A DNA stretch of 64,000 nucleotides. It comes from Candidatus Marinacidobacterales bacterium. GTDB taxonomy: Bacteria > Acidobacteriota > Vicinamibacteria > Marinacidobacterales > DATDRI01. Below, one piece after another: positions 40,978-64,000 of the stretch; positions within the stretch are counted from its first letter, which is position 1, and every line of letters starts with the position of its first letter. The notes under the pieces were generated by a model. That model saw nothing but the letters and a program-made list of their open reading frames with translations. It did no database searches and had not been told where the DNA came from. A program made the translations under genes and the position numbers. The DNA lies in assembly GCA_965226495.1 (NCBI GenBank), contig OZ245365.1:544001-608000 (forward strand). The letters are read 5' to 3'.

Positions 40978-41106
40978 ATATGGGGACGTTCCGAGGAACC
41001 GTGGCCAACTCCCTACACCTGTTCCCCGGGCAAGACTCGTTGATCACCTCTAAGTGATTAGTTCATAAGCGACTTCGCAAGTAGCTTCGTCGGCACTAGT
41101 CTTGCT
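40978..41106 (+). promoter_or_regulatory. Sigma54 promoter with upstream motif and IHF-like site (giant gene 1)
   Basis: CGGCACTAGTCTTGCT (GG-N10-GC) at 41091; TAAGTGATTAGTT at 41051; ATATGGGGA-N13-CGTGGCC-N3-TCCCTACA at 40978. Confidence 0.78.
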
Positions 41107-41146: not shown

Positions 41147-44100
41147 ATGTCTTGGCTCGGGGGTACTTTGACTAAGTCAGCGCATCCAAAACTTAGATCG
41201 CACGCATTGAAGGCTCTTGCCTTTTCTATTCTGGCCGTCTGTCTACCCACGTCCCTTTTCTCCGCCGAAGTGACCATCGAATCCTCTGCTCAGGTGAATC
41301 ACGAGGTGTGGGAAAGCCAGGGCGCGGCCGTCATCTTTACCTGCGACCAGATCGGCTACGTCTTTTACTTGGCAGCGTTCGATGCCACCTCGGGAACTCC
41401 AACCTACCGGCAGACGACCGATGGGGGAACCACCTGGGGACCGGCGGTCGCCATCACATCCCGGACGGACATCGAGGATCTCGGCGGCATTTGGTACGAC
41501 CGCTGGACGCCGGGCGATACGACAGGGACAAAGATCCACATCAGCTATTACTCCGGTGTGGCCGACGACACCACTTACTACCGAAGCCTGGACACCGCGG
41601 ATAACTCGCTGGGTAGCGAGGTCTTGGTCGCCGACATGACCAATATCAACCAAGATGACGGTCACACGTCGATCACCAAAGCTACCGACGGCGATCTCTT
41701 CATCTATGCCGCCAGCACGGGCGTTCAAGATGTCTGGCGGTCCATTGACAACGGCTCCAGCTGGGTATCCACTTCGGCTTCCTTTCTCGATGACGACCTC
41801 GATCAGGGAAACCTGATGCCGCTCTCCGGGGGAGACGTTCTGCTCACCTGGTATGATGCGACGGCTGCAACAACCTTTTCCCGCGTCTTAACCAACGGCT
41901 TGGTCTGGGATGTAGCGAGCACCACGGTTGCTACCAACATCAATTTCACCAGCCATACCTGGGCCAGCACTTGGGGCACTTCCATCGACAAAACCTCTGG
42001 CGATATCTTTCTTGCCGTCAATGATTGCCCCGCTGACCCGGTGGGTTGTCTTCCCACCCCTGACTCCAGCATCGAGACTTACTTTTACGATGAAAGTCTG
42101 CGTTCCTGGTCGCAAAGAACCAATGTTTTGAGCGCCGACACCTCCAATGTTCGAGACGTCAAGGTATCCATCGACGAGAACACCGGTGATATTTACGTCG
42201 TCTATCAACGCGGCGGAACCGGCAGTCACGTTTACTACAAGAGATCTGTCGACGGAATGACGAGCTGGGGAGTGGAAACGCAGGTGAGTACCACCGGCGA
42301 CGACCTGCGCGTGATTAGACCCAACCTGATGAGCGATGAGCGGCTCTATGCCGTGTGGTTCAATGATGATCTGTCGGATATCTTGGGCGACACCATCGTC
42401 GACCTCACCTCGTCTACCCCGTCTCTCACACTGACCGACCAAACCGCCACCCAGGTCGGCGACGCGCTCACCACCAGCTCGCCGGTCACGGACGTTGTTT
42501 TCTACCGCTTCAACCTCGCTCGGTCCGGCACCGTCACCGTGAACAATATCCGGGTCAACTTCACCACCGGGGGCGGGATCGTCAACGCTGACGTCACCAA
42601 CGGCCAGCTCTACCGGGACGAGAACAACGACGGAGCCTGGGACGTCGGCGATACGCTCCTGCTGGGCGGCGTGACACCCGCAGGAGGCGTGCTTGCCTTC
42701 AACGGCTTGGGCGAAGATCCGGCAGGGGGAACGAACTATCTGGTACGCGCCACGATCGATAACCTGGTCAACGGCGACACCACCACCTTCTCGGTCAACT
42801 TCGCGGATATCGACGTCGTGGAGGCCGGTGTCAACGAATGTGGCACCATCACCGACGCCGTCCATATCCAGGATTTGTTCCTCACACTGGCCAATCATGG
42901 CTCCGGCCAGGTCCCGGACCGGTTCACCGCCGTCACGCCGGTGACCGATGTGCTCTTCCGCTTCAACCTGACGGCGACGGGAACGATCACCGTGGACGTC
43001 TTGCGAGTCAACTTCACCACGGGTGGAGGCGTTGTCAATGGGGACGTCCCGGTGGGTCAACTTTGGGAGGACGTCAACAACGACGGTGCGATCGACGGCG
43101 GCGACAGTCAGATAGGTGGAAACGTCACCCCCACCGGTGGCGTCCTGACCTTCAACACTGATTTCTCGCCCGCCGTGAGCGGCACCAATTACCTGGTACG
43201 GGCCACGGTCGCAAACCTCCTGGGCGCGGACACCACGACCTTTTCGGTGGGCGCTGCCGACATCGACCCGCTCGAGCCAAGCGTCACCGAGTCCGGTTCT
43301 ATCACCAACGCCGTCCATACCCAGGACAACGTCGTCGACCTGACCCAGGGTCACTACCGCTGGCGCAACGATGACGGTGTTGAGTTAGGAGACACCAACG
43401 AGGTGAGCGAGACCGCCTCCACCACGACAACGAATGCGGCCTACGAGGCCTTGTCCGGTATGTCGATCACGCCGGGTGCGGGTGACTATCTGGTGTGGTT
43501 CAGCGGGACCCTGAGGAACAGCAGTACGGGCACCCAGCACGTGTCTCTTTACCTCGATGCGGGTCAGATTGCCGAGAGCGAGCGCGAGATTACAACTGAG
43601 ACTTCGATACCGAATACGCGTTACGTGACCGCCACGCATGCCTTCATTGCGGGAGTGACGGCGGGCCAAACAATCAACGTGCGTTGGAAGACGAGCGCCG
43701 GTACGGCGACGATGCTCGAGCGCACGCTGACCGTAACGAAGGTGAATGCCGCAGATGTTACGCAGGCCACGGCGACCACGCTTGCAACCGAAACAAGCGT
43801 CACCGACACACTCATCAACAGTATGACCCTCACCCCGGGGGCGGGTGACTATCTCATCTGGTTCAGCGGCTCGAACGCCAACACCGCGGCCCCTTCGAAG
43901 AACCACGTGTCGTTGTATGTGAACGGATCTCAGGTAACTCACACGGAGCGGGAGATCGATCAAGAGGAGTCCCTCGGGAATACCTTCTTCCCCGTGGCTT
44001 CACATGCACGAGTGCTTGCAGTGGGAGCGACCGACGCGATAGAAGCACGCTGGAGAGTTAGCGCCGGGACCGCCAACATGAACGCCCGGACGTTGACCGT

Positions 44101-47100
44101 CTACAAGATCAATCCCGCGGAAAACTTCCAAGCGAGTTCCGATATAGACGATGGACCCTTCTCCACCGCCAGCTATACCCAGGTGAACAGCATGACGCTC
44201 ACCCCGGGAGCGGGTGACTATCTCGTGTGGTTCAGCTCCTCCCTGGTAGCCGATAACTCTGGCGATACGGTGCACGTGTCCTTGTTCTCTGGGGGCAGCC
44301 AGGTGCCCCACAGCGAGCGTGAGATTTGGGTGGAAGGCTCGATCGATACGGCTCCCTTTCAATCGTTCCCGGTGGCCACGCACGCCTATATCACGGGAGT
44401 AGGTGGGAGCGATGCCATCGAGGTGCGATGGCAGCTCACGGGTGGTGGTACCGCCACGATGCACGAGCGCACTTTGGTGGTGCAAAAAGTACCGTCTCCG
44501 ATCCTGGCGACCTTTGCGGCCGCCGAGGACACGAAACTGACCGGCCTGGCCAAGAACACCATCAAACGGGTTCGCTTCGAGGTATCGAACGAGGGCAACG
44601 CAAGCTCAGGCGCCGTGACCTACCAGCTTCAGGTGGCGGAGACCGCCACTTGCAGTGCGGGCAGCTACAACAACGTTCCCACGGACACGAGCGGGCATTG
44701 GCAAGTTACGGACTCGTCATTCATCACTGATGGTGAGCCGACCGCGAACATCAGTCCCGGGCTTACCGACGACGCGACGACGTTTGTGTCGGGTGAGCTG
44801 AAGGACTTGGGTAACACCACCGGAACCATCACCCTAGGCGTAGACCAGTTCACCGAGGTCGAGTTTTCGGTCCAGGCACTGGCGGCGGCCACCGACGGCG
44901 GTGATTATTGCTTCCGCCTCCAAGTCCTCGATACCTATATCAACTACGCCGAGGTCCAGCTGGCCGCCCCGACCACCGATGTCACGGTGACTGTCTCCGG
45001 CACCCAGACAGCGACGATGGGAATCCCCAGCACGAACCAGTACGTGGGCGGGAAGTTCGTCATCGTCGACAACACCGGCTCGCGAAACATCACCGGTATC
45101 ACCATCACCGAGAGTGGGACCGTCGACGCTCTGAACAACCTGGATAACATCAAGCTCTTCTACGAGCTCGACACCACGGCTCCGTATGACGGAGCGAGCG
45201 AAAGCTACGCTGGGACAGAGTCTCAGTTCGGGGTAACGGACACGACCGGTTTCAGCGCTGCCAACGGAACATCGAGCTTCACGGGCACGGTGGCGATCAA
45301 CACGACATCGACGATGGTGGTGTACGTGGTGTTCGATGTAGGCGCGGGAGCCACCCCGGGCGAGACGGTCGAGATCAGCATCAATGACTCCTCGACGGAA
45401 GTCACGGCCAGTGCAGGAACCGTCGGTCCGGCCACACCGGTCGCGATCCCGGGGACCACGACACTTGCCGCGCCGCCTGCAGGTGTCATTTTCTACTCGG
45501 TGGGGACGGACAACACCGCGCTCTATTCGGATACGGCTTCGGCCGCGAGCGGAACGCTCACCCTGAATAGCGCAGCTGCCAACAACATTGGAGTGGGTGA
45601 CGAGATCCGGGAAGGAGCGAACCGTTACTACATCACCGGGCGCACCTCAGCGACCGTTTTTGCGATTCAGAATTCTGCCGCGAATGGTGGTACCCCGGGC
45701 GATACGAACATTACCTTCGCGCTCACCGCAATCACGATTTTTCGCGCCTTCAACGACTTGGACACCGCACCCACCGGCTCTGCGGACGCCAACCACCTCA
45801 ACACTACGGATCTCGTAACCGGTAACTTCCAGCTCAACTGGGCGTGTTACAACGACGGTCCCGATCCGTCGGTCGAAGTGGTGATTCAGGAGCCATGGGT
45901 CACTGGGCCTGCGAACTACATCCGGGTCTTCACTCCCACCGACTCAACCCAAGTCGGAATATCTCAGCGACACACCGGCGTTGCCGGCACCGGATACCGA
46001 ATTGCGCCTTCCACCGTCGCAGGCTCCGGCAATTTCAATCTGCTGCAGATCAGCACGGACTTCGGCCACGTCCGCATCGAGGGAATCGAGCTCGACGGCT
46101 CGAACGTGACCGGTGGCGACGGTGTATACGGTATCGACCTGGGTGACAGTGACGGCGCGAGCTCCGACGACATTCGGATCTCCCACTGCCTAATTCACGA
46201 CATCACCAACTCGAGCCTCGCGGATGCGAGCGGCCTTGATGTGGCAGGGATCAACGTCTTCGTTGGGCGCCCCTCGGACAACACGAAGATCTGGAACAAC
46301 ATCATCTACGACGTCTCCAACGTGAGCACCAACGGTGCCTCTGACGCGAAGGGCATCAGGATGAGCGCGCCCGGGGTTACCTACTACGTCTACAACAACA
46401 CCGTGTACGACATCAGGAAGACGGGCACGGGTGGTGACGCCAACGGTATCGAAGACAACGGTGTGACCGGCGTTCATGCGAAGAACAATTACGTGGGTCT
46501 CGTCCAGCACCTCATGGGTGGCCCGCAACTCTGCTTCAACGGCACGTTCCTTTCCGAGAACAACAACGTCTCTTCGGACGCCACGGCGGGGGGCGCCGGG
46601 AGTCAGATCAACCAGTCAGCTTATGCTTCCTACTTCGTGGACACCACGGGCGGTAGCGAAAACCTCCACCTACTCAATGACTCGAACACGCTTTGGGGCT
46701 CTTTCGGTACCGACCTGGATAGCGACGCCAATCTGCCAATTACGGACGACGTCGATGGCGAGGCGCGGGACGCGACCCAGCCGGACATCGGAGCGGATGA
46801 GGCCGCCCCTGCCGTCGTCGCCTTCTACTCGGTGGGGACGGACAACACCGCGCTTTATTCGGACACAGCCTCGGCGTCGGCCGGGACCCTCACGCTGAAC
46901 AGCCCTGCCGTCGACAAAATCGGAGTCGGTGACGAGATACGGGAGGGAGTGAATCGTTACTACATTACCGGACGCAACTCGGCGACCGAGTTTACGATCC
47001 AAAACTCTGCCGCCAATGGAGGTACACCGGGTGACGCGAACATTACCTTCGCGTCTACCGCCATCACGGTTTTCCGGGCGTTCAACACGCTCACGGCAGC

Positions 47101-50100
47101 CGAGGCAGGCTCCTCCAACGCGAGTCATCTCAACACGGCGAACCTCGTTACCGGCAACTTCCAGCTCAACTGGACCTGCTATGACGACGCTGCCCTGAAC
47201 GATACTGTCGTAATCAACGGGTACACGACGGGAGCCAGCAGCTACATCCACATCTATACACCGACCGCGACTAACGAAGTCGGAATCTCCCAACGTCACA
47301 CCGGAGTCGCAGGAACGGGATTCCGCCTAGTTCCGGTAACCAGTACCCCACCAAGTCTCATACGGGTTTTGCGTATCCAAGATGAGCACGTCCGCGTCAC
47401 CGGGATCGAGATCGATGGCTCCAGCATTACAAATGGCCAAGAGTTAGAGGGAGTTTCAACCTCTAACTCACTCACTGGGGCATCCGACATTCGACTCGAC
47501 AAACTCATTGTCCACGATATTCGCAGCGAGGACGGCGGCGGCGGAGATGCCGATCCGATTGGCGTTCATATCGGTGGCGGAAACGTCAAGCTCAGCAACT
47601 CGATCATCTATGACATCGCGCAAAGCACCGCCCAGGCTAACGCCGACGCTTACGGAAGTCGCACGTCCGGCGTCGCCAACAACGTCTTCTACCATAACAA
47701 TACGATCTTCAATATCAAGAACACCGGCAACACTCGCTCCGCTTGGGGAATCCAGCGCAGTGTCGGTACGGTCACTGCCAAGAACAATGCCGTATTGGAT
47801 GTGGAATCGACGAGCGGGGGAGAAGCGTGCTTCAACGGGGCGATGACGCAGAGCAATAATGTCTCCTCGGATGCCACCGCCGTCGGTCCCCAGAACCAAA
47901 CGTCGTACGCCACGTATTTCCAGAACATCACCAACGGCAGTGAGAATCTTCACCTGCGCAATGACTCGAACGCCCTTTGGGGCTCGTTCGGCGCCGATTT
48001 GGACACCGACCCCAATCTGCCGGTCACCGAAGATGTCGATGCAGAGGCCAGGGATGTTTCCACCCCTGACATTGGCGCCGATGAGTTCGCAGGCGCGGTG
48101 GGGGCGGGCGTCATTTACTACTCGGTGGGGACGGACAACACCGCACTTTATTCGGACACGGCGTCGGCGTCGGCCGGGACTCTCACGCTGACCAGTCCTG
48201 CCGTCGACAAAATCGGAGTGGGTGACGAGATACGGGAAGGGGCGAATCGCTACTACATCACCGGTCGAACCTCGGCAACCGAGTTTACGATCCAGAACTC
48301 CGCCGCGAACGGAGGCACACCGGGCGATACCAGCATTACCTTCGCCTCCACCGCGATCACTATTTTCCGGGCCTTCAACGGCCTCTCGGCGACCCAAGCT
48401 GGCTCGTCCGACGCCAACCATCTCGCTACGTCTAACCTCGTTACCGGCAACTTTCAGCTCAACTGGGCATGCTACAACGACGGGCCTATGAGCGACGTTC
48501 TCAGCGACTGGAACGGCGTTTCGATCACCGGTTGGACGACTGGGGTGAGCAACTACATTCGAATGTTCGCACCGGTCACGGCGACTGAAGTGGGAACCTC
48601 CCAACGGCATAGCGGAACAGCCGGCTCCGGATTCCGTTACGTCCCCAGTACGGCCACCCCTCAGGTCACCTTCAGTCTCGTGGACGTACAAGCGGATCAC
48701 TTTCGCATCGAAGGTATCGAGATCGATGGCTCTAGTGTTTCAAACGGACAGGGGGTCCAAGCAATTGGCACATTTGGCGTTACCACGGCCGGGAGCGATC
48801 TCTGGTTCGACAAACTGCTCATTCACAGCCTCACCAATACGACCGACGGTATCGTCAGAGCAATCTCCCTTCAAGATGGCAATCTCAAGCTGAGCAATTC
48901 CATTATCTATGGATTAACGAGTGTAGGAACAACGGCCACTAACTATGCGATAGGAGTTGAGCTAAACGAAGCGGCCGGAACTTTCTACATTCACAACAAT
49001 ACTATCTACAACATCAAACAAACTGCCGGCGCCGGTGGCGCAAACGCGTACGGGATAGTGCGATGGCCCGCCGCCGGTGCCACGACCGTCAAGAACACGT
49101 ACGTCGGAGACGTGAATTCTATATTGGGGTCAGAGTGGGATTTCAACGGTATCACGACCCAGAGCAACAACGTCTCCTCAGACGCCACCGCGGCGGGTGC
49201 TGGAAGCCAGGTAAACAAAGCGGCGTACGCGACCTACTTCCAGAACATCACTGCCGGCAGCGAGAATCTTCACCTTCGCAATGACTCCAACACCCTTTGG
49301 GGCTCGTTCGGCGCCGATCTAGACAGCGATCCCAACCTGCCGATCACCGATGATATAGATGGAGATGTTAGAGATGCCTCCACCCCTGACATTGGCGCCG
49401 ATGAGTTCACAGGCGCGGTGGGTGCGGGCGTCATTTACTACTCGGTGGGGACGGACAATACCGCGCTCTACTCGGGCAACGCCTCGGCGTCGAGCGGAAC
49501 GTTGACGCTGGCGAGCGCTGCGGTCGACAAGATCGGGGTGGGCGACGAGATACGGCTAGGAGCGAATCGGTACTACATCACCGGCCGGAACTCGTCGACC
49601 GAGTTTACGCTTCAAGACTCCGCGGCCAATGGAGGCACACCGGGCGATACGAATATCAACTTCGCGTCTACCGCGATCACGATCTTCCGAGCCTTCAACG
49701 ACTTGGACACCGCGACCACCGGCTCCGCGGACGCCAACCACCTCAACACCAGTAACCTCGTTGCCGGCGACTTCCAGCTCAACTGGGTCGGTTACAACGA
49801 CGGCCCTGACCCCTCGTGGAGGCCTGCCATCGAGGAGCCCTGGGTTACCGGAGCATCTAACTACATCCGATTATTCACGCCCACCGATCCAAGCCAAGTG
49901 GGAGTATCACAGAGGCACACCGGCACCGCTGGCACCGGATATCGAATCCGTCCCGTGGGATCAGCCATTGGTATAAGTCACTTCAACTTCGTGTTCATCA
50001 GCACCGACAACGGTTACGTACGATTGGAAGGTATTGAAATTGACGGCTCCGGGCTTACCAACGCCGAAAACATCCGGGGTATTTATATCAATGATCCTGC

Positions 50101-53100
50101 GCCAGGCACAGGGGAAGACGTTCGGATTTCCCATAGCCTTATCCATGATTTAGTCAATACCACGATCGATGATTCGGATCAGAGCAAAATCCTCGCTCTC
50201 TATGTAGACCAAACCAACAATACAAAGATCTCGAATAATGTCGTCTACCATCTCCTCAATGTCTCGACCAATGCGGCGAGCGAGACGACAGGACTAGACA
50301 GTGTGGTAGGCGGAACGACACATTATGTCTTTAACAATACGTTTTACGATATTCAGAGCACCGCAACTACCCAACAGGCACGCGGGATTTGGGATAGTGT
50401 TGGTTCGACGCTTGACGTCCAAAACAACTATGTAGGACTTGTAGACAGCGTCGGGGGATTGGAGGCCTGTTTCGTGGGGCCTTTTGCAAACGAGAACAAC
50501 AATGTGTCCTCCGACGCGACCGCCGCCGGCACCGACAGCCAGACCAACCAGTCGGCCTATGCCTCCTACTTCGTAGACACGACGGGTGGTAGCGAGAACC
50601 TCCATCTAATCAACGACTCCAACACGCTTTGGGGCTCGTTCGGCGCCGATCTAGACACCGATCCCAACCTGCCGGTCACCGATGACGTCGACGCCGATGC
50701 TCGGGATGCGTCGACCCCGGATATCGGCGCCGACGAGTTCAGTAATCCGGTCATTGTTACTTTCTATTCGGTGGGGACGGACAACACCGCCCTTTACTCG
50801 GACACCGGGTCCGCGTCGAGCGGTACGTTAACCCTGAACAGCGCTGCCGTGGACAAGATCGGAGTGGGCGACGAGATACGGGAAGGAGCGAACCGCTACT
50901 ACATCACCGGGCGCATCTCAGCCACCCAGTTTACGATTCAGAACTCCGCCGCGAATGGAGGCACACCGGGCGATACGAATATTACCTTCGGGTTAACCGC
51001 GATCACGATTTTTCGGGCCTTCAACACCCTCACCGCGGCCGAGGCGGGCTCCCTAGATGGCAGCCATCTCGGGACTGCGAACCTCGTCGTGAGCAATTTC
51101 CAACTCAACTGGACCTGCTATAACGATACTGCCCTCGACGATACCGTCTTCATCAACGGGTACACGACCGGGCCGAACAACTACATTCACATCTACACGC
51201 CCACGACGACGAGCGAAGTCGGGACCTCTCAGCGCCACGACGGAACGGCGGGAACTGGATTTCGCATGGTACCGGTAACCAGTACTCCGTCCAGTCTCGT
51301 GAACTTTGTCCGTATCGATGATGATCATGTCCGTATCACAGGCATCGAAATCGATGGCTCGAGCATTACCAACGCCCAAGAAATTACTGGAGTGTCAATC
51401 TCCAGTTCGGTTTCACCCTCGTCCGATATTCGATTGGATAAACTCATTATTCACGACATTCAAAGCCAGGACGGTACCGGCGGCGACGCTGATCCGATTG
51501 GCATCCATATTGGTGACGGAAATGTAAGGCTCAGTAACTCGATCATCTATGACATCGTGCAGACGACGGTGAACGTTGATGCCTGGCCACGAGGAGTGCG
51601 CATAAATTCCGGCAACCACTACCTTCACAACAATACGATCTTCAATATCAAGAACACCGGCAACGCCCTAGATGCCTATGGGATCGCAAGTGCTGGCACG
51701 GTGACCGTCAAGAGTACCGTCGTTTTAGATGTCGTGGCGTCCGGTGGACCACAAGCGTGCTTCAGCGGCGCGCTCACTCAAAGCAACAACGTCTCTTCAG
51801 GCGCCACTGCGGTCGGGCCCCAGAATCAATCGGGCCCGTACACCAACTATTTCGTAGACGTTAGCGACGGTACGGAGGACCTTCACCTGTTGAACGACTC
51901 GAACTCCCTCTGGGGTTCCTTCGGCGCCGACCTCGACAGCGATCCCAACCTTCCTATCACCGACGATATCGACGGCGGCGTGCGGGATGCGTCGACCCCA
52001 GATATCGGGGCTGATGAATTTGGTGCCGCCCCGGGGTCACTGACGCTGGCCGACCACGGCGCCACGCAAGTTGGGGACCAGTTCACTATCCAGGCTTCGG
52101 TCACCGACGTTTTGTTCCGTCTCAACCTCAGTCGCTCCGGTACGGTGACCGTCGACAACATTCGCGTCAATTTCACCGTCGCAGGAGGCGTGGCGAACGG
52201 CGATGTCAGCAACGGTGAGCTGTACCGCGACGTGAACAACAACGGCGTCTTCGACAGCGGGACCGACACACTCGTTCTGGGCAGCGTGACGCCGGTGGCC
52301 GGTGTCCTCGCCTTCAACAGTTTGAGCGAAGACCCGGGTGCCGGAACGAACTATATCGTCCGCGCCACCGTCAACAGTCTTAATGCCGGCGACACGACCA
52401 CGTTATCGGTCGGCACGGCGGACATCGATCTCGTGCAGGGGGGAGTCCTCGAATCGGGCTCGATCACGAACGCCGTGCACACCCGGGACGCTGGCGCCAT
52501 CATCTATTACTCGGTGGGGACGGACAACACCGCCCTTTACTCGGACACCGCTTCGGCATCGACAGGGGTCCTCACCCTGAATAGCGCTGCCGCCGACAAC
52601 ATCGGGGTGGGCGACGAGATACGAGAAGGTGCGAATCGCTACTACATCACTGGGCGCATTTCAGCGACCGAGTTCACGATCCAGGACTCGGCAGCGAATG
52701 GCGGCACGCCGGGCGATTCGAATATTAACTTCGCGCTGACTGGGATTACGATTTTCAGGGCGTTCAACACTCTCACGCTAGCCGAGGCGAACTCTCCAGA
52801 CGTTGACCATCTCAATACCTCCGACCTCGTCGCCGGCAACTTCCAGCTCAACTGGACTTGCTATGACGATCTTGCCCTGGATGACACGGCGATCATTGAC
52901 GGATATACCACGGGGGCCAGCAACTACATTCACATCTATACGCCGACGGCGACGAGTGAAGTCGGTGTCTCCCAACGTCACATCGGGGTCGCAGGAACGG
53001 GATTTCGCATAGCGCCCATCACCGCGGCTCCAGCCGATCCTCTAGAAATCATCGATATCCGCGATGATCATGTCCGCATCACCGGGATCGAGTTCGATGG

Positions 53101-56100
53101 TTCTGGTATTACGAATGGCAGGGCGATTAAGGGAATCGAGGTCGACGCTTCCGTTGCTGCTTCCGGTGACCTTCGATTTAACAAGCTCATCATTCACGAT
53201 CTTCAGAGTCAGGACGGAACTGGCTCAGACGCTGATATATATGGCTTCAGACTCGTTAACGGAAATGTGAGGATCAGCAATTCGATTATCTATGACCTCG
53301 AGCAGACCACAGCGCTTAACAATGCCTCCGCTCTTGGAGTGAGGACATCCGGTGGATCGAGCCACTATCTCCATAACAATACCATCTTCAACATAAAGAA
53401 CACCGGGACTGGCACGGTACTACTTTCGGAGTCAGTGCATCCGGCGGTACGGTCACTGCCAAGAACACCGTTGTTCTAGATGTTGCCGGACTTGGTACCG
53501 TAGCGTGCTTTGACGGCGCGATCACCCAAAGCAACAACGTCTCCTCGGATGCCACCGCCACGGGGGCGGGTAGCCAGATCAACCAGCTCTCCTACGCTAC
53601 TTACTTTGTAAGCACGATTGCCGGCAGTGAAAATCTTCACCTGCTAAACGACTCGAACACCCTTTGGGGCTCGTTCGGGGCGGATCTGGATAGCGATCCC
53701 GACCTTCCGGTCACGGATGACATCGACGGGGCGGCGCGTGACGCTTCGACTCCGGACATCGGTGCAGACGAGTTTGGCGCCGGCGGACCCTGCATTCCCA
53801 CCATTAACTTCCGGTCGATCGGTATCGATACCAACCCGCTCGCCAACACGGGCACGGCCTCGGTGGCGCTAGGCGGCACGGTGGTCACCCTCAGCGTGGC
53901 TTTGCCATCGAATATCGGCAGGGGGGATCGGATCTGGCTCGATACCAGCGGTGTCAACGAGGAGCGGTTCATCCTGGTTCGCAACTCTGATACGCAGGTG
54001 ACGTTGCAGCAGCCGGCACAGAATGACCACAGCGGTGGCGTGTCCTACAGCATAGAGCGTGCTTACTCGGGCGCAGACCCCATTCAGGCCTGGGAAACGG
54101 CGCGCCAAGGAGATCTCGTTGCTCAGAACCGAAGGGAAATCGGTGTCGCCTATAACGATGGTGTTCTCACCAATGGCGTGGATATTGTGGGCTCGACCAC
54201 CGACGCGTGCCACTTCATGTGGCTTACCGTGGCCGAGGGGGACCGCCATAGCGGTGTCGCGGGTACTGGGGCTCTTATCGACTCGAGCAGTGAGGGCGAT
54301 CCGCTCGTCGGTGAGATCGAGATTTTTGACCCCTACACGGTCGTCGACTGGTTCGAGGTTACGGGAGTCAACGGAAATAGCACCAATGCCGGCGTCAGGG
54401 TCAGCGCCAGCGCTACCAACATAAGCCTCTCCAATCTCATCGTTCACGGAAATCAGAACGGAGTGCGCGGCTCCGGCACCGGTACTAAAAGCTTCACCAT
54501 CCGAAACTCCATCATCTATGACAATGTGGAGGCTGGTATCGAAGGCGATGAGGCCGGCGACACCGTTCTCGTCGAGAACTGTACTGTTTACAAGAATCCG
54601 TCGCGCGGTGTGGCTGCGACAGATGCGGACATGACGGTCACCAACACGATCTCGGTGAACAACGCTCCCGGGCCCGACTTTAGTGTCGGGGTTGGAACTC
54701 TAACGCAAACCAACAACATTTCGTCCGACGGCACCGCGGCGGGCACGGGCCCGCTGACGGGCCGCACCGCGACCGACAATCCCACCCCCGGTGCGGGTAA
54801 CTGGGTCATCTTCCGAAGCCTCACCGCGGGCGTTGAAAACCTCCACCTCCAAACCGGTGCTGAAAATGATGCCATCGATGCCGGTACCGACTTGTCTTCC
54901 TTCTTTGCGAATGACATCGACAACGAGCTGCGCCCCGGCGGAGCTTGGGACATTGGAGCGGATGAGCTGGCGGCCACGTTGATGGTTACCGGCAAGTACA
55001 CGGGCGACGGTGGTGCCGGTCGGCAGATCACGGGACTCGGCTTCCAACCGGACGTGGTCCTCATCAAGGTTGACTACCTGGCAGCGGCCGCGGACGATTC
55101 GGCCGCGATCATGAAGACGGCGACCATGAGCGGCGCCAACTCGAAGCCCCTCCATGCGGCACAAACCTTTCGAACCGACTTGATCACGTCGCTCGATGCC
55201 GATGGATTCACAGTTGACAACACACTCAATGTCAACGCTCTGAACAGCTGCGGTGCCGGAAGCGACCCATGCGAATATCACTGGATTGCCTGGAAAGCCG
55301 GCGCGGACATGAAGCTCGGGACCTACACCGGAAATGGCACGACACAGTCGATTACCGGGGCCGGCTTTTCACCCGATTACCTAGTCGTCATGGCGGAGAC
55401 GAATCTCCGGCCCGTCCATCGTAACAGCTTGACAGGTGCCTGGAGTTCAAGGTTCGGGCCGGGAGGTTTTTCTGCAGACGCCATTACTTCACTCGACGCA
55501 GACGGCTTCAGTCTAGGGAACAGCGTCACTGAACCGGCAAACCACCCGAACGAATCGGGCGTGACTTACCACTACGCGGTCTGGAACGAGGTGGCCGGGC
55601 AAATGGATGTCGGCATCTACCCGGGAGATGACAGCGACGACAAAGATATCAACGGCGTTGGCTTTCAGCCCGAGTTCGTGATGGTGCAGGCGTACGACGA
55701 CAGTAAGGACGGCCGGATGAAGAGCGATACCATGACCATTGGTGCCTCTGACGACGCTTCGATGAGCTTCCGGGGAGGCCTCGTAAACAATGTCATCCAG
55801 GACCTCACCACCGACGGCTTCCAAATCGGCTCTGACACTACCATCAACGACTCTTCAATCAATTACTTTTATGCCGCCTTCAACGCGATACCGAACCTCG
55901 CAACGGCGGTCGAGCTCGTTTCCTTCACGGCGACCGGTCTCGACGGCGAGGTTTCGCTGGAGTGGGAGACGGGTTCGGAGCTGGATAACCTGGGATTCCA
56001 TCTGTACCGGTCGCTTTCCGTGGAGGGTCCGTACGAGCAGATCACGGCCAGCGTGATTCCTGGGCTCGGTTCTTCTCCTGAGGGAGCGAAGTACGCGTAC

Positions 56101-58950
56101 CGCGATTCGGGCCTCACCAACGGCGTGGCCTACTACTACAAGTTGGAAGACATCGAGACGACGGGAGTGACAGAGCTCCATGGCCCGATCTCGGCAACCC
56201 CGAGCTCGGAAGTTGTGGTCGAAGGCGGCTCCGAAGGCGAGGAAGGTTCGACCGGAGAAGACCTCGGTGACCTGACGTCTCGCATCACCTACGGGGATCC
56301 GTTGGCGAATGAGCTGAAGGTACGCCGCCGCGGCAAGAAGTGGATGGAGCTCGAGCTTATCACCGAAGGCTTCTATGCCATCCCGCAAGACGATGGCTCG
56401 GTGTTGCTGGAGGTTCCTGGCTTCGAAGACTTCGGTGGTCCGGACCTACCGGATGTACCGGTCTACCGCACGTGGCAGGATGTCCTGGCGGGACGCAACG
56501 TGAAGGTGGCGTCGGTGAAGGTCGGCGGAGTGGCGGAGTTTGCGAGCCTGCGCCCGAGCTCCTCGGAGCTCGTCGTCGTGGCTTCGGGAGACGGCACGGT
56601 TTCGACCGGGCGCCGGCGTAGGAAGCGCCGCCAGCCACCTCATGTTTACTACCCCGAGTCGTGGGCCAAGCTGATGAGCGTGGGCTTCCAAGGTCCTGCG
56701 AAAAAGGCGTTGGTCGAGATGGCCCCGCTTCGGTGGGATGCTACGGCCGAGCGATTGGTGCTGGCCCGCCGTGTGGTGGTGCGTATCTCGTTCAAGGGCA
56801 AAGACAAGGCAGAGCTGAAGCTCGGCAAGAGTCACCGAGAAGTCGGAAGCCATGCGAACCGGAGCGTCTATGCCCGCATCGCGGTGACCGAGCCCGGACT
56901 CTATGGGGTGAGCTACGAGTCGGTATTCGGAAAGAGGCGAAAGGCCATCAAGACCAGCTCCTTGAGACTGAGCCGTCAGGGTGAGCCGGTGGCGTTTTTC
57001 GTGAGTCCGAACGCGAAGAAGTTCAAGAAGAACTCGAAGCTGTACTTCTTGAGTGATGGGGCGGCTTTGAATCCGTATGGTCACGAAGCGGTCTATGAGC
57101 TCGAAGCCAGCCAACAAGGCCTCCAGATGGAGTCCTTGAATGGAAGCCCAGTGGGAGCCCCCACCAGTTTCTACTGGAAGACGTTGAAGCGGGAAGAGAA
57201 CCTGCTCTACCAAGCTGCTTTCGAGGGAGAAGAAGACATCTGGCAGTGGGATTGGCTATTCGGTCCGATGACGAACGGCTATCCGTTCGAAGTGACAAAT
57301 CTGTCGCCCGTGGCCGAAAACTCGAAACTGAGAGTGTGGCTCCACGGAGCGAGTGACTTCCCGGAGGATCCGGATCATCACGTGCGTCTCTACGTGAACG
57401 GAACGCTCCTGACCGAGACGTGGTGGGACGGCGAGACGCCGCACTTCGTGGAAACCGAACTAGGTCCTGGTCTACTCCAAGAAGGCGAGAACACGCTCGA
57501 GATAGAAGAGGTCGGGGACACGGAAGCTCAGTACTCGATGGTGATGCTGGACCGTTTCGAGGTGAGCTACCCGGCCCAGCTGGTAGCGGAAGCGGGCGAG
57601 CTCAAGGGCAGTTTCAGCGAATCGGGAGTGGCGACTATCACGAGTCCGCCCGGGAACCTTTTCGACGTGACGGATCCAGAACCGAAACGGGTCACCGGAT
57701 TCCAAGCGGTCCAAGAAGGATTGAGCTATCAAGCCGAATCGGGTCATCGCTATCTATTGACGAGCTCGGTGAAGACTCCCGAAGTGAGGCGCGCACAGCC
57801 TGCAGGTCTGAAAAAGGCGTGGAGCCGAGCGGAGTATCTAGTCATCGGTCCGCGAGAGTTTCTGGCTGCCGCGGAGCCTCTGCTGTTCCATCGTCGAGAC
57901 GAGGGCCTGATATCGGGAGCGATTGCAACGGAAGACATCTATGACGAGTTCGGATACGGTGAGGCGACGCCGGAGTCGATCAAGGACTTCCTGAGCTACG
58001 TCTACCACCACTGGAGCGAGCCGACATTAAGGTACGTCCTCTTACTCGGAGACGGGACCTACGATACCAAGGACTATTTGGCCACAGGTGTGAAGAGCCA
58101 GGTCCCAGTAAAGATTCTCAAGACGCAGTTCGTGTGGACCGCATCGGATCCGTGGTACGGAGCCATCAATGGCGAGGACATACTTCCGGATGTGGCGGTG
58201 GGGAGGCTTCCGGCGGCGTCGTTCGAAGAGGCGCAGCGACTGGTCGCGAAGATCCTTGAGTACGAGAGAGAGCCCTCAGCTCCCGCGCAGTCGCCTGACG
58301 ACGGAGCGGGGGGCGCTGGGGGTGGGGCCCCGGCGCCATTGAGTAACGCAAGCAGACTCACTGGTCCGATCGTCCTGATTGCCGACAACCCGGATGCAGC
58401 CGGGAACTTCGTGTCGGATGCCGAATCGCTGTCCTCGACGGTGCTTTCTGGAGAGGATGTCCGGAAGATCTACTTGACCGATCTCGGATCGGCGGGAGCC
58501 CGAAGTGCCGTGCTTCAGGCCTTCGACGACGGAGCATCCCTCATTAGTTATATGGGGCACGGGGCGATTCATCTCTGGGCGAACGAGAACTTGCTCAACA
58601 TCTGGGATGTGGATTCACTATCACCACAATCTCAGCAACCGTTCCTTCTAACGATGAACTGCCTGAACGGGTACTTCCACTTCCCGTACTTCAACTCCTT
58701 GTCGGAAGAGCTTCTGAAGGCGGAGGGGAAGGGCATCATCGCGGCCTTCTCGCCGACCGGCTTGAGTCTCAACGGGCCGGCGCATCGATTCCACAAGGCT
58801 CTACTCGACCATGTCGTCAATCAGCAGCACGAGCGATTGGGAGATGCAGTACTGGCGGGCCAGGCCGCTTATGCCGAGACGGGAGCCTTCCCGGAGCTTC
58901 TGAGCATCTACCATCTGCTGGGGGATCCGGCCCTTCGAATGCGACAGTAA
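41147..58950 (+). CDS. Giant modular secreted protein (~5,930 aa) with C-terminal C25 peptidase; 1-nt frameshift at ~53415
   Basis: Sec signal, Asp-box propeller, repeat modules, TAVELVSFTA domain, C25 core (YVLLLGDG, DVAVGRLP, SYMGHG, TMNCLNGYF, LLGDPAL). The repeat continues in the frame of ORF 53863..58950 from 53416 with no stop. Confidence 0.88.
42425..43327 (+). repeat. Module A, two tandem ~150-aa copies (others at ~52040, ~60929, ~63065)
   Basis: LTL.DH...QV.D.FT....VTDVLFRF.L.RSGTVTVDNIRVNFT...GELYRDVNN.G...TNY.VRATV..L...DTTT.S...HTQD. Confidence 0.9.
45491..53775 (+). repeat. Module D, six ~435-445-aa repeats with predicted beta-helix cores
   Basis: Units start with (F/Y)YSVGTDNTALYS at ~45491, 46823, 48116, 49436, 50762, 52505 and end with PDIGADE; NNIIY/NNTIF-type stacks in the centre. 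Confidence 0.92.
58279..58360. repeat. In-frame palindromic insertion in the C25 domain
   Basis: Hairpin GGCGCTGGGG-GTGGGG-CCCCGGCGCC (58312-58337) plus GCTCC...GGAGC and TGAGT...ACTCA; encodes APAQSPDDGAGGAGGGAPAPLSNASRL. Confidence 0.55.
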
Positions 58951-59044: not shown

Positions 59045-59173
59045 ATATGGGGAAATCGGACAAAATCGTGGCCGGTTCCCCACAGAACGGTCACGCGCGC
59101 CAGAGTAGAAACGCACCTAACCGATTGATTTTAAAGGGTCCACGGTGCGCCCCCAGGAGGCACGCCTCTTGCT
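59045..59173 (+). promoter_or_regulatory. Sigma54 promoter with upstream motif and IHF site (giant gene 2)
   Basis: AGGCACGCCTCTTGCT at 59158; TAACCGATTGATT at 59118 (exact reverse complement of WATCAANNNNTTR); ATATGGGGA-N13-CGTGGCC-N3-TCCCCACA at 59045. Confidence 0.82.
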
Positions 59174-59200: not shown

Positions 59201-62200
59201 TTGTCGATCGAGTTCCGTCTATCCGCCCGAAAAATCCTTTCGCTCTTCTATTCCCTCTGGGTCTTCGGGGTTTTGCTCGGATCCGCTTCGCCCGCTCAGG
59301 CTCAAGATGTCACGGTGAGCGCCTCGGGAGCTCAGACGGCCACCATCGTCATCCCGAGCACCAATCAGTATGTGGGCGGCAAATTCGTCATCATCGACAA
59401 CACCGGCTCCCGAAACATCACGGGCATCACCATCACCGAGAGCGGTGCAGTGGATGCTCTGAATAACCTGGACAACATCAAGCTCTTCTACGAACTGGAT
59501 ACGACGGCACCTTATGACGGGGCGAGCGAAAGTTTCGCCGGGTCGGAACTCCAGTTCGGAGCGACCGATACGGACGGGTTCAGTGCCGCCAACGGGACGT
59601 CCAGTTTCACCGACTCCGTCGCCATCGACACGACGTCGACGCTGGTGGTGTACGTGGTGTTCGATGTGGGGGCCGGAGCGTCAGCCGGTGAGACCGTTCA
59701 GATCACCATCGAAGACGCATCCAGCGAAGTCGTTGCGAGCGTGGGAACGGTGGGACCAGGCACCGCGGTCTCGATTTCTGGGACGTCGATTCTCTCCGCG
59801 GCCGGGTGCGGGCCCGTCGTCAACTACCGGTCGATCGGCGCGCAGGCGACCCCTCTTGCCAACACCGGCACTGCGTCGGTCGCTCTGAACGGAACGGTCG
59901 TCAACTTCAGCGGCGTCTCGTTACCGGCCAACCTGGGCCAGGGCGATCGGATTTTTCTGAACACGGGTGGCGTCAATGAGGAACGATTCATCCTTTCACG
60001 GGATTCCGCTACTCGAGTCACACTTCAGACTCCAGCACAAAATAGCCATGGCGGTGTCCCCTATCTCATCGAACGCGTCTACAACGGAGCTACCCCGATT
60101 AGGGATTGGGAGGTGGCAACGCAAGTAAACCTCGTCGGCCTGAATCGTCGGGAGACCGGAGTCGCCTACAACGACGCCGTGTTTAACGACCCCGGTGTGA
60201 TTAGCATCAATGGAGCGACTACCGACGCCTGCCACTTCAGGACACTCACCGTGGCGGCTGGCCAGCGACACACCGGTATCGAGGGAACGGGCGTCGCCAT
60301 AGACGGCGGCGGCGGGCTCGCCTTTGATGATGACTACACCGTCCTCGAGTGGTTCGAAATTGCCAATGTCGGAGACGCGCTAGAAATCATCGGCGCCAAC
60401 CTTCTTTTCGCAAATCTCATCATTCGCGATTTTGGCCCGAGTGGCTTTGACACCAGCGGCTCCAGTTGGAGCTATACCGCACGCAACTGTTTCGTCTACG
60501 GCGGTGGCAGTCACGGGTTTAGCGGTGGCACCGGAGCGGGCCCGACCGCGACCGTTGAGAACTGCACTATCTACGGAAATAGCGGTGCGGGGATTAACGA
60601 GGGCACCGGGCCTGTCTTTACCGTCCGGAACACGCTCTCGATGGGAAACAGCGGTCTCGACTTCAACATCGTTGCCGGAACGCAGACCAACAACATGTCC
60701 TCCGACACGAGCGCTCTGCCCATCGCGAACCGCAGCAAGCTGCCGGCTGACCAATTCATCGACCACCTTGGAACGCCTCCCAACTTCCACCTGAAGTCCA
60801 CCGCGGATGCCAAGGACATTGGCTCGGATTTGTCCGCCTTCTTCACAAACGATATCGATAACGATCCGAGGCCCATCGGTGCTGGGTGGGAGATCGGTGC
60901 GGACGAACAAGGGGTGGCCGGGCCGACTCTGATACTGGCCGACCACGACGCCGGCCAGGTCGCCGACAAGTTCACGTCAACTCCCTCCGTCACGGATGTC
61001 TTGTTCGCCTTCAAACTAACCCGCTCGGGTACCGTCACCGTCGATAACATTAGAGTCAACTTCACCACCGGCGACGTTGCAAATGGCGATGTCAGCAATG
61101 GCGAGCTCTATCGGGACGTTAACAACAACGGTATTTTCGATAGCGGCACGGACACGCTCGTACTGGGCGGCGTCACGCCTGTGGCCGGCGTTCTGGCCTT
61201 TAACTCCTTGAGCGAAGATCCGGGGGCGGGAACCAACTACATCGTCCGTGCCACGGTCATTAACCTGATTCCCAACGACACTACGACGTTCTCGATGGGC
61301 ACCGCGGATATCGATGAAGTACAGGGGGGCATCACCGAGTCCGGATCCATTACCGGCGCCGTTCATACTCAGGACGGTATCCCGAATCTTACCGAGGGGC
61401 ACTACCGTTGGCGTAATGATGATGGTGGTGAGTCCGGCGGCAGCGATACGACGGAGGTGAGTTCGACGGGACCGGCGACGACGACGGGCACGGGTTCTTA
61501 CGAGGCGCTGACAGGAATGTCGATCACTCCGGGAGCGGGTGACTATCTGGTGTGGTTCAGCGGGACCTTGAGGAATGACACAACCGGTACGCAGCATGTT
61601 TCCTTGTTCCTCGACGGCGGCCAGATAACCCACACCGAGCGCGAGATCACGACGGAGAGCTCGATCCCCGACGCTCGATTCGTAACCGCCACGCACACCT
61701 ATATTGCTGGGGTGACGGCAGGTCAGGCGATCAACGTGCAGTGGCAGACGAGCGCGGGTGTTGCGACGATGCTCGAGCACACGTTGACGGTCACGAAGGT
61801 TAATGCGGCCGATGTCACGCAGGTCATCCGGACCAACGCCCTATCTACCGGGCCCGTTACCGACACTCTGATCGATGGCATGACACTGACGCCGGGAGCG
61901 GGAGACTACCTGATTTGGTTCAGCGGTTCGAACGCCAATACACTGGATCCTACCAAGAATCACGTGTCGTTGTACGTGAACGGGACCCAAGTGGTTGGCA
62001 CGGAGCGAGAGATCGACCAAGAGGAATCGCTCGGCAATACGTTCTTCCCTGTGGCCAGCCATGCCCGGGTGCTCAGCGTGGGAGCGGGGCAAGCGATTGA
62101 GGCGCGCTGGAGAGTGGACGCCGGCATGGCGACGATGAACGCGCGTACGCTGACCGTTTACAAGATCAATCCAGCCGATAACTTTCAAGCGCAGTCCGAC

Positions 62201-64000
62201 ACGGATGATGGCCCGTTCTCCGGCGGTACTTATACCCAGGTGAACAGCATGACGCTCACGCCGGGGGTGGGTGATTATCTCGTTTGGTTCAGCTCGTCGG
62301 TAGTTACCAGCGGTCAATCAGGCGACACCTTCCACGTGTCGTTGTTCTCTGGTGGCAGTCAGGTACTGGAGAGCGCACGTGAGATATGGAATGAAGGCTC
62401 GATTGACATCAGCCCTTTCCAATCGTACCCGGTAGCCACGCACGCGTACATCACGGGAGTGGGAGCAACGGACGACATCGAGGTCCGCTGGGTGAGGACG
62501 AGCGGCACGGGTAACGCCACGATGCACGAGCGTACGTTGGCGGTGCAGAAGATCGTGAGTGGAAGCGGCGCCACGTTTTCTATCGCACAAGATACAAAAC
62601 TGACGGGTCTTGCCAAGAGCACCATCCAACGGGTTCGTTTTGGGGTTTCGAACGAAGGGACGGGGACCTCGGGCCCGGTAACCTACGAGCTCCAGGTGGC
62701 AGAGACGGCGACGTGTAGCGCGGGGACGTATTCCACCGTGCCCACCGCGGCCGGTGGTCACTGGCAGGTCTTCGGCTCGACCTTCATCACCGACGGTGAA
62801 GCGACCTCGGACATCAGTCCAGGGTTGACCAATGACGCGACCACGTTTGTCACAGGTGAGCTGAAAGACACGGGGAACACCACCGGAAGTATCACGCTCG
62901 CCACCGACGAGTTCACGGAGATCGAGTTTTCCGTCCAGGCGCTGGCCGCGGCCACGGACGGGGGGGATTACTGCTTCCGTCTCTACGATGCCGCCAACAC
63001 CCAGGTTCTAGATACCTATACCGTCTATGCCGAGGTCCAACTTGCTGGTGCGGGCGGCGCATCGCTGACCTTAGCGAATCACGACTCCGGTCAGGTTGCC
63101 GACAAGTTCACTACGACGTCGCCGGTCACCGATGTTCTGTTCCGTTTCAAGTTGACTCGCTCCGGTACGGTAACGGTCGACAACCTACGTGTCCAATACA
63201 CCACGGGCACTGTCATCGACGCGGACATCACCAGTGGAGAGCTGTGGCGAGACGTAAACAACGACGGCGTGGTCGATGGCGGTGATTTCTCCGTCCAGAC
63301 GGGAATCGCCGGTTCGGCGGGCGCGCTCGCCTTCAACTCGCTCGGTGAGGATCCGGGAATAGCCGGGACCCATTACTTGGTACGAGCCACAGTGGCCAAT
63401 CTCGTCGCCGCCGATACCACAACTTTCTCTCTTGGCGCCGCAGACATCGACGAGGTGGAGGGAGGGGTCGCCGAGTCCGGCTCGATAGCCAATGCTACCC
63501 ACACTCAGGATGTAGGTAGCGGATCGGATATCGCCGGTACCATTTCGGAAGATGTTAACGGAGATGGCAGCCTTGCCGATGCCGCGGTGCGAGACAACGC
63601 CACCGTGTCACTCTACCAGGATGGCGGGGATGTTCAGCCTGATGGCGGCGATGACATCTTTCTTACCGTCACCTCTACCGATGTTAGCGGCAACTACACT
63701 TTTGCAAGTTTGAGCGCCGGGACCTACTGGGTCGTCGTCGATTCTAAAACTGTCACACCTAGTGCAGGTCTCAACGGCAGCTTTGTTCAGGGGGACGTGT
63801 GGCCTGAACAGACTTACGGCGCTATCGGAGCGTGGTGCGATGACGGTACCGGCGTGGCTACGGAGCTCGGTGCCACTGGTGCTTGCTTCGGCGGTCAGGT
63901 GAGCACGGTCTCTGACGATGCTTCGACACTCGCCGCGTCAGAGCATGTGACCCGGGTTGTTGTAGTGGCTAGCAATGTCTCAGGCGTGGACTTTGGTTTC
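59201..64000 (+). CDS. Second giant modular secreted protein, 3'-partial (not in ORF track)
   Basis: RBS GGAGG 7 nt before TTG 59201; signal peptide ending ASPAQA|QD; modules C-E-A-B-A then an SdrD-B-like domain (IAGTISEDVNGDG...GTYWVVVDS); same frame at 61382 and at the window end. Confidence 0.88.
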   Translation, partial: MSIEFRLSARKILSLFYSLWVFGVLLGSASPAQAQDVTVSASGAQTATIVIPSTNQYVGGKFVIIDNTGSRNITGITITESGAVDALNNLDNIKLFYELDTTAPYDGASESFAGSELQFGATDTDGFSAANGTSSFTDSVAIDTTSTLVVYVVFDVGAGASAGETVQITIEDASSEVVASVGTVGPGTAVSISGTSILSAAGCGPVVNYRSIGAQATPLANTGTASVALNGTVVNFSGVSLPANLGQGDRIFLNTGGVNEERFILSRDSATRVTLQTPAQNSHGGVPYLIERVYNGATPIRDWEVATQVNLVGLNRRETGVAYNDAVFNDPGVISINGATTDACHFRTLTVAAGQRHTGIEGTGVAIDGGGGLAFDDDYTVLEWFEIANVGDALEIIGANLLFANLIIRDFGPSGFDTSGSSWSYTARNCFVYGGGSHGFSGGTGAGPTATVENCTIYGNSGAGINEGTGPVFTVRNTLSMGNSGLDFNIVAGTQTNNMSSDTSALPIANRSKLPADQFIDHLGTPPNFHLKSTADAKDIGSDLSAFFTNDIDNDPRPIGAGWEIGADEQGVAGPTLILADHDAGQVADKFTSTPSVTDVLFAFKLTRSGTVTVDNIRVNFTTGDVANGDVSNGELYRDVNNNGIFDSGTDTLVLGGVTPVAGVLAFNSLSEDPGAGTNYIVRATVINLIPNDTTTFSMGTADIDEVQGGITESGSITGAVHTQDGIPNLTEGHYRWRNDDGGESGGSDTTEVSSTGPATTTGTGSYEALTGMSITPGAGDYLVWFSGTLRNDTTGTQHVSLFLDGGQITHTEREITTESSIPDARFVTATHTYIAGVTAGQAINVQWQTSAGVATMLEHTLTVTKVNAADVTQVIRTNALSTGPVTDTLIDGMTLTPGAGDYLIWFSGSNANTLDPTKNHVSLYVNGTQVVGTEREIDQEESLGNTFFPVASHARVLSVGAGQAIEARWRVDAGMATMNARTLTVYKINPADNFQAQSDTDDGPFSGGTYTQVNSMTLTPGVGDYLVWFSSSVVTSGQSGDTFHVSLFSGGSQVLESAREIWNEGSIDISPFQSYPVATHAYITGVGATDDIEVRWVRTSGTGNATMHERTLAVQKIVSGSGATFSIAQDTKLTGLAKSTIQRVRFGVSNEGTGTSGPVTYELQVAETATCSAGTYSTVPTAAGGHWQVFGSTFITDGEATSDISPGLTNDATTFVTGELKDTGNTTGSITLATDEFTEIEFSVQALAAATDGGDYCFRLYDAANTQVLDTYTVYAEVQLAGAGGASLTLANHDSGQVADKFTTTSPVTDVLFRFKLTRSGTVTVDNLRVQYTTGTVIDADITSGELWRDVNNDGVVDGGDFSVQTGIAGSAGALAFNSLGEDPGIAGTHYLVRATVANLVAADTTTFSLGAADIDEVEGGVAESGSIANATHTQDVGSGSDIAGTISEDVNGDGSLADAAVRDNATVSLYQDGGDVQPDGGDDIFLTVTSTDVSGNYTFASLSAGTYWVVVDSKTVTPSAGLNGSFVQGDVWPEQTYGAIGAWCDDGTGVATELGATGACFGGQVSTVSDDASTLAASEHVTRVVVVASNVSGVDFGF

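Follow-up and report, generated by a model that had tools for sequence, protein, structure and literature searches.

Can a surface protein carry, in one chain, both a cargo and the enzyme that processes it? This question is raised by a gene in a 64,000-nt stretch (the window) of contig OZ245365.1 from a 'Candidatus Marinacidobacterales' bacterium (Acidobacteriota, class Vicinamibacteria), which encodes a long repeat-bearing passenger, a domain opening with Thr-Ala-Val (here, the TAV domain), and a peptidase of family C25. A first-pass annotation had proposed that the peptidase cleaves its own chain near this motif and may attach the passenger to the envelope. In the sections of the two articles cited here, PorU-type anchoring is described only within the T9SS (type IX secretion system) of Bacteroidota (PMC10202324, PMC5445135).

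The gene and its reading frame

The gene is real, and the copy in the window carries a 1-nt frameshift near 53415. The ~5,930-aa protein that had been annotated thus stands in size (5,934 aa, with an extra G present in three of four runs) but not as a single frame of the window, where an ORF from 41147 to 53479 (4,110 aa) is followed by a second frame open from 53377 to 58950, the overlap lying inside a repeat. The G behind 53415 is found in contigs from three of four public runs, belonging to three studies, and restores one frame; the comparison is between contigs, one for each G-bearing run, at a depth of 5.8-9. The fourth run matches the window. Since other lone G insertions occur at 53920 and 54390, in two of the four runs, and three more C25 genes of the same assembly are also split, the break is probably a long-read homopolymer error. 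Alternatively, this copy could be a pseudogene that makes a truncated passenger only, as might be argued from the base missing in the window and in one run, and from several paralogues in this and related assemblies that are likewise split. This is very improbable, given three runs from three studies with the base, lone G indels elsewhere that are each confined to single runs, and full similarity to intact paralogues on both sides of the break. Intact homologues of 2,987-4,969 aa are present in other assemblies.

The remaining outline of the protein (Table 1) agrees with that first drawn: a start at 41147, a Sec-type signal recognized by eye, ~4,900 aa of repeats, the NLATAVELVSF motif with its Thr at 55903, a prodomain, and a stop at 58950. 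The true start may instead be a TTG at 41168. Two features had been missed: a PorU-type region of ~310 aa between prodomain and catalytic domain, and the identity of the next gene, a paralogue with the same TAV-C25 end.

Table 1. Features of the fusion gene and its surroundings (window coordinates)
Feature	Position	Strand	Basis or remark
Sigma-54-like -24/-12 promoter motif	41092..41106	+	motif search
Giant passenger-TAV-C25 fusion gene	41147..58950	+	5,934 aa across the 1-nt break
Sec-type signal peptide	41147..41266	+	read by eye from the translation
N-terminal passenger	41267..45490	+	propeller-like region with Asp-box-like motifs (by eye), then Ig-like repeats
Seven beta-helix-type modules of ~430 aa	45491..54960	+	motif map
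Frameshift site	53415..53416	+	one G inserted in 3/4 runs
DUF7483 repeats	54961..55899	+	PF24299, E 2.3e-22; PHROG 24898 'tail fiber', E 2.3e-19
TAV domain	55903..56205	+	FN3 fold; opens Thr-Ala-Val, candidate cut after 55905
Acidic flexible linker, alternative cut region	56206..56277	+	pLDDT <50 at model residues 123-139
Gingipain-type prodomain	56278..56802	+	Kgp prodomain 5mun, Z 15.6, rmsd 3.4, 171 aligned
PorU-type N-terminal region, including CBM-like jelly roll	56866..57792	+	PorU 6za2
C25 catalytic domain	57835..58944	+	PF01364; His 58558-58560, Cys 58660-58662
Sigma-54-like motif of the next paralogue	59159..59173	+	motif search
Second of six tandem paralogues	59201..64000	+	4,009 aa, running past the window end; TAV-C25 end

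The N-terminal passenger has no convincing Pfam match; its Ig-like repeats consist of blocks that are common to the paralogues and shuffled among them (BLASTP). The beta-helix-type modules start at 45491, 46823, 48116, 49436, 50762, 52505, and 53809. They are 33-73% identical to one module, and the last is matched by Pfam Beta_helix (E 3.7e-8). For the module at 46823-48115, the best Atlas look-alikes are stand-alone phage proteins of 465-484 aa (score 0.98). This likeness is taken as a lead only, since PHROGs, tblastn against phages, a PDB profile search, and two viral scans found no phage kinship. Elsewhere in the window (591-3392) lies a gene for a secreted-type protein with PA14, Fn3, CotH kinase, and lamin tail domains.

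A peptidase related to PorU and to the gingipains

The C25 core that had been annotated is confirmed by PF01364 (E 8.6e-75; 252.7 bits against a gathering score of 23), with the His of the GHG motif at 58558 and the Cys of NCLNG at 58660. Both motifs align with those of RgpB and PorU, and both residues are invariant (108/108 and 80/80 aligned sequences). In an AlphaFold2 model covering the C-terminal 1,031 aa and built with 80 sequences (pLDDT 89.3, pTM 0.85), the catalytic domain superposes on RgpB (4ief_B) at 2.2 Å (Z 37.0, 321 aligned). By sequence and predicted fold, then, the catalytic center is intact, and peptidase activity is predicted.

The profile and structure comparison with RgpB and PorU that had been suggested gives a composite picture: a PorU-like module, an RgpB-like catalytic domain, and a gingipain-type prodomain. 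PorU ranks first in a Foldseek search with the model (E 6.7e-26 over 829 columns) and is also the best PDB match by sequence; PorU 6za2 (residues 25-789) superposes on model residues 321-1031 with 561 aligned (Z 19.8, rmsd 5.8), and a CBM36/BcsB-like jelly roll occupies residues 440-573 (Z about 10). The catalytic domain is closer to the gingipains (Z 33-37) than to the latent crystal form of PorU (Z 19.8). For the prodomain, 4ief_G is a further structural match (TM-score 0.60 by target), and Pfam Propeptide_C25 stays below its cut-off (E 0.006). RgpB Asp163, the Arg-pocket residue, aligns with an Ala beside a gap; a conserved Asp lies two residues earlier in 77/80 sequences. PorU has a conserved Arg722 (PMC4560394). 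At its position, ~32 residues after the Cys, the aligned relatives have Gly (68/80) or Ser (12/80), and six true PorU rows (711-902 bits) carry an Arg in this segment.

The PorU profile NF033707 matches at 188 bits against a cut-off of 420, over profile positions 105-524. The six PorU rows form a separate clade (SH-aLRT 99) in a quick tree of 57 hand-picked rows (56 of 115 C25 domains plus that of the window), in which PorU2-like rows occupy a long branch of their own. Because of the sub-cut-off score, the separate clade, the missing Arg, and the lack of a T9SS C-terminal domain (CTD), the peptidase is classed, from its sequence, as a sister of PorU rather than PorU itself.

The fusion protein shares with PorU the C25 His-Cys dyad, the superposable N-terminal region and catalytic domain, and a candidate site that fits the PorU cut motif and stands before a beta-sandwich domain. 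It differs in having a prodomain, no Arg722 equivalent, and no CTD, and in joining the peptidase behind its own cargo, in many copies, in a genome without SprA or CTD matches. With the gingipains RgpB, RgpA, and Kgp (1CVR, 4IEF, 5MUN) it shares the catalytic fold and an N-terminal prodomain, and RgpA and Kgp are themselves self-processing protease-adhesin fusions of family C25 (PMC5445135). However, the passenger here is N-terminal and ~4,900 aa long, there is no CTD, prodomain and catalytic domain are separated by a PorU-type region, and Asp163 is unmatched in the sequence alignment. To the 'putative T9SS sortase PorU2' (NF052324) there is a weak match (E 6.8e-35) that spans N-terminal region and catalytic domain; its 120 bits lie under the cut-off of 450.

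The TAV domain and its candidate cut site

No Pfam or NCBIfam family matches the TAV domain. Modeled alone, it folds as an FN3 domain and finds FN3 domains as its best structural matches; its best Atlas matches are unnamed clusters. Its first strand begins at the Val in the AlphaFold2 model, and the Thr precedes the strand. Among the 103 of 108 aligned rows that have residues at the site, Thr is found in 101, followed by Ala in 83, Glu in 12, or Ser in 4 (Ala or Ser after Thr in 87/103) and then by Val in all 103. Median identity is 8% ahead of the Thr and rises sharply to 67% beyond it. The PorU cut motif is given as T/E/D/N↓G/A/S, the arrow marking the cut (PMC10202324), or as X/(GSA)(VLI) (PMC4560394) in the parts of these articles that bear on it. 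Judged by sequence, T↓AV fits this motif.

The same arrangement is found in C25 giants of 2,987-4,969 aa, in which the TAV domain stands before the peptidase in 39/39 and the Thr is kept in 37, although the query of this search, as of one other homologue search, included the TAV domain. The 39 range down to 25% identity, and two are apparently paralogues from this organism itself. Within the 22 most distant giants, the residue after the Thr is small in 9, Arg in 5, and Pro in 3. This frequency of non-small residues, together with the Glu of the 12 close relatives, counts against a T↓A cut; the fixed Thr could alternatively be a structural residue or a glycosylation site. When a profile was run against 1.84 billion representatives, FN3-repeat proteins dominated, so that the totals are no measure of the TAV family; a strong single TAV match was present in 35 of the 150 matches listed.

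The TAV domain resembles the T9SS type A CTD (TIGR04183) as a beta-sandwich of ~100 aa directly after a T↓A-V-type site. Unlike that domain, it goes unmatched by TIGR04183, is FN3-like in structure, and is internal in the fusion; the two coexist in T9SS genomes.

Nine fusions in one genome

The genome (one contig, 6.34 Mb, 94.8% complete) contains nine C25 genes: six in tandem, beginning with the gene at 41147, two at 223-247 kb, and one at 5.49 Mb. A TAV domain precedes the peptidase in all nine. The genome search for further TAVEL-type proteins, with or without C25, that the first-pass annotation had called for yields these nine and no further strong match. The six tandem copies form one clade (quick tree) and are 77-92% identical in the TAV-peptidase module, with shuffled passengers; as a portable cassette, the block of TAV domain and peptidase has been duplicated and fitted with different passengers.

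The motif upstream of the gene is sigma-54-like, of the -24/-12 type. It recurs upstream of 9 of 10 estimated family gene starts in the genome, against a chance expectation of 0.015 per 450 nt, and before 10 of 22 related ORFs, some of them fragments. Three of the tandem genes share another motif, GGGGA...CGTGGC...TCCC.AC (40978-41030 and 59045-59095 in the window), which lies ~100 nt upstream of their sigma-54-like sites and is a possible activator site. Behind the array (contig 667855-670287) is a seventh gene, which has a signal and passenger modules and a sigma-54-like motif before it. It ends after ~800 aa, lacks both TAV domain and C25, and overlaps with a gene unrelated to it; either a truncation or a misjoin would account for this. 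The gap between the third and fourth tandem genes (contig 633958-636457) holds small genes, by eye HEPN/nucleotidyltransferase-like and YoeB-type toxin-antitoxin-like pairs, together with what is left of a C25 C-terminus.

The ninth copy has a degenerate cut site and lies beside a peptide-modifying cassette (~5.498-5.501 Mb; locus L008:13316-16196), and the TAV-C25 module may therefore have more than one purpose. Following this gene are a 59-aa ORF and genes for an S24/S26-type peptidase, an HprK-related kinase, PqqD, and a radical SAM protein; upstream are genes for a nucleotidyltransferase and a kinase of Wzc-like type. Such kinases stand beside two of the three loci in this genome but do not recur in neighbor clustering of 65 loci, which likewise revealed no recurring partner or acceptor gene beside the fusions.

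Secretion context

The statement that no T9SS CTD follows the peptidase holds: TIGR04183 finds no match there, and the chain ends directly at the catalytic domain. The lack of T9SS genes, first noted for the window, extends to the genome for the two components searched with positive controls. SprA has no match in this genome (two of three control genomes positive) or in any of 151 genomes of the class, and the CTD has none in this genome, compared with 97-150 matches in control genomes; one relative has a single weak CTD match. GldM also gave no match in the genome, in a search without a positive control. A PorV-like gene was rejected as evidence of a T9SS, as it scores 58 bits against a cut-off of 90 and lies beside pilB/pilT/pilC. 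C25 itself is found in 66 of the 151 genomes of the class; the highest count in a single genome is 13 matches. Present in the genome are a type II-like operon (secretin, GspE-type, and GspF-type genes), type IV pilus genes, and Tad genes; the type II secretion-like operon (locus L126:9237-18157) and the second C25 locus are about 20 kb apart.

Fused and split forms in other phyla

Closest to the fusion, among 78 loci in named genomes drawn from the best 80 of 569 stretches, are loci of Acidobacteriota (Vicinamibacteria, 'Ca. Marinacidobacterales'), then of Chloroflexota, Nitrospirae, Holophaga, and others. Passenger, TAV domain, and prodomain are fused in the same way in a Nitrospirae record, where the fusion seems to extend over two contigs (L091, L081); in a Holophaga record (L078:3266-6661) two proteins end in a TAV domain and a dockerin-like tail (by eye), with C25 nearby.

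In Chloroflexota the TAV domain is also found in C25-free proteins. Within 151 genomes of this phylum, the TAV domain (E <= 1e-12) is found in 20 and C25 in 22, all 20 lying within the 22, and 129 have neither; the seed genome is counted in, and related genomes are not independent samples. The two are separate genes within 6 kb of each other in 11 of the 20. In 20 regions chosen from TAV or C25 matches, a TAV domain and a YLPxxxR-type tail form the C-terminal end of cargo proteins that reach ~3,000 aa, and the cargo genes directly precede a separate C25 gene, often with the same type of tail. The TAV domain and C25 go together, in cis in the fusions and in trans in Chloroflexota. The Y/F-L-P-x-x-x-R tail, common to the cargo and many of the C25 enzymes (L103-L122, L093, L096, L098, L100, L101), has no NCBIfam match in the proteins scanned and is likely to be an export or anchor tag. 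In Anaerolineae, a membrane-anchored Pro/Thr stalk protein that begins with a TAV domain precedes a C25 gene, and its mature chain apparently starts at the residue after the Thr position (signal cut placed by eye). Such stalk proteins stand beside a C25 gene at L076:9923-11023, L079:8442-9431, and L110:2746-3672, and are possible transpeptidation acceptors.

That LPVEL-like domains precede T9SS CTDs, as first stated, is borne out in three T9SS genomes, where a TAV domain stands before a CTD-length tail in 26/29. There the domain mostly opens with an aliphatic residue and Pro (Pro second in 19/28), and with Thr in only 7; at Vicinamibacteria loci Thr opens it in 50/51. The residue anchoring behind such counts failed for 1/29, 5/31, and 3/54 domains and was wrong for three Chloroflexota rows (L110, L115, L116). 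The three T9SS genomes also encode small secreted proteins that consist of a TAV domain and a TWGSIKALFR tail only (L168, L180, L181).

A proposed mechanism and its alternatives

Since a PorU-related peptidase stands behind a PorU-like conserved site, the giant proteins probably cut, and perhaps anchor, themselves. After Sec export, assumed from the signal read by eye, the protein would cross the outer membrane without a T9SS, for which the type II-like operon is a candidate route. The prodomain, gingipain-type in its predicted fold, would by analogy keep the C-terminal PorU-sister peptidase latent. The peptidase would then recognize the FN3-fold TAV domain, in its own or a sibling chain, and cut after the Thr, much as PorU cuts at its motif before the CTD. 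The resulting acyl-enzyme could be resolved by an envelope amine, leaving the passenger anchored, or by water, so that it is shed; the data fit either. Self-processing at T↓A by the protein's own C25 domain is, on this analysis, slightly favored. Covalent anchoring of the passenger to the envelope is a more tentative proposal. Equally tentative is a one-gene sortase system that works without a T9SS, in which a PorU-sister transpeptidase cuts Thr↓Ala and links the passenger covalently to an envelope acceptor and in which, as part of the same guarded estimate, a separate Chloroflexota enzyme reads the TAV domain in trans as a sorting signal. The stalk proteins, with a mature N-terminus that mimics the leaving group, could then be the Chloroflexota acceptor.

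Several observations count against self-processing: the missing PorU Arg, a catalytic domain closer to the gingipains, a prodomain like that of the degradative gingipains, and the degenerate site of the ninth copy beside a peptide-modifying cassette. The first three would suit a degradative, gingipain-like exoprotease carried on a long binding stalk. It would use the TAV domain as a mere FN3 spacer, lose its prodomain on activation, and be targeted to particles or cells by the passenger that stays attached. There is precedent in RgpA and Kgp, C25 proteases with fused adhesin domains (PMC5445135), and the TAV domain does fold like common FN3 domains. Such an enzyme is nonetheless unlikely, in view of the PorU-type N-terminal region, of a Thr that is nearly invariant though it precedes the first strand, and of TAV domains that also end peptidase-free proteins, in the Chloroflexota sample only together with a separate C25 gene; the alignment of RgpB Asp163 with Ala may also speak against it, but for the conserved Asp two residues earlier.

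The TAV domain could instead be a docking module, with the chemistry elsewhere: a cut behind it, in the acidic linker or before the YLPxxxR-type tail of Chloroflexota, or a partner ligated or trimmed in trans, such as a small modified peptide beside the ninth copy. The flexible linker behind the domain would offer such a site, and in T9SS genomes, where the domain precedes the CTD, a PorU cut would indeed fall after it. The variable residue after the Thr in distant giants and the cassette of PqqD, radical SAM, kinase, and S24/S26 genes with a 59-aa ORF beside one copy point the same way. However, it is the Thr that is fixed, the linker differing in both length and sequence; of the nine copies in the genome, only one lies next to the cassette; and a PqqD-like neighbor was seen (by eye) in only 3 of 65 related loci. 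Together these observations make docking without a cut at the Thr improbable.

Significance

A literature search, with most subscription papers outside its scope and motif terms swamped by unrelated words, found neither the fusion nor the TAV domain described. New here are the shared TAV domain, the PorU-like site, the comparison of fused and split forms, and the tandem expansion. The way in which a folded signal is read by a PorU-like peptidase is described as still unsettled (PMC11285876), and an enzyme fused to its own substrate offers a single-chain test of such reading. If the self-processing reading is true, surface proteins of Acidobacteriota and Chloroflexota would have a sorting signal in the TAV domain, and many 'C25/gingipain' matches in environmental genomes would be protein-sorting enzymes rather than feeding proteases.
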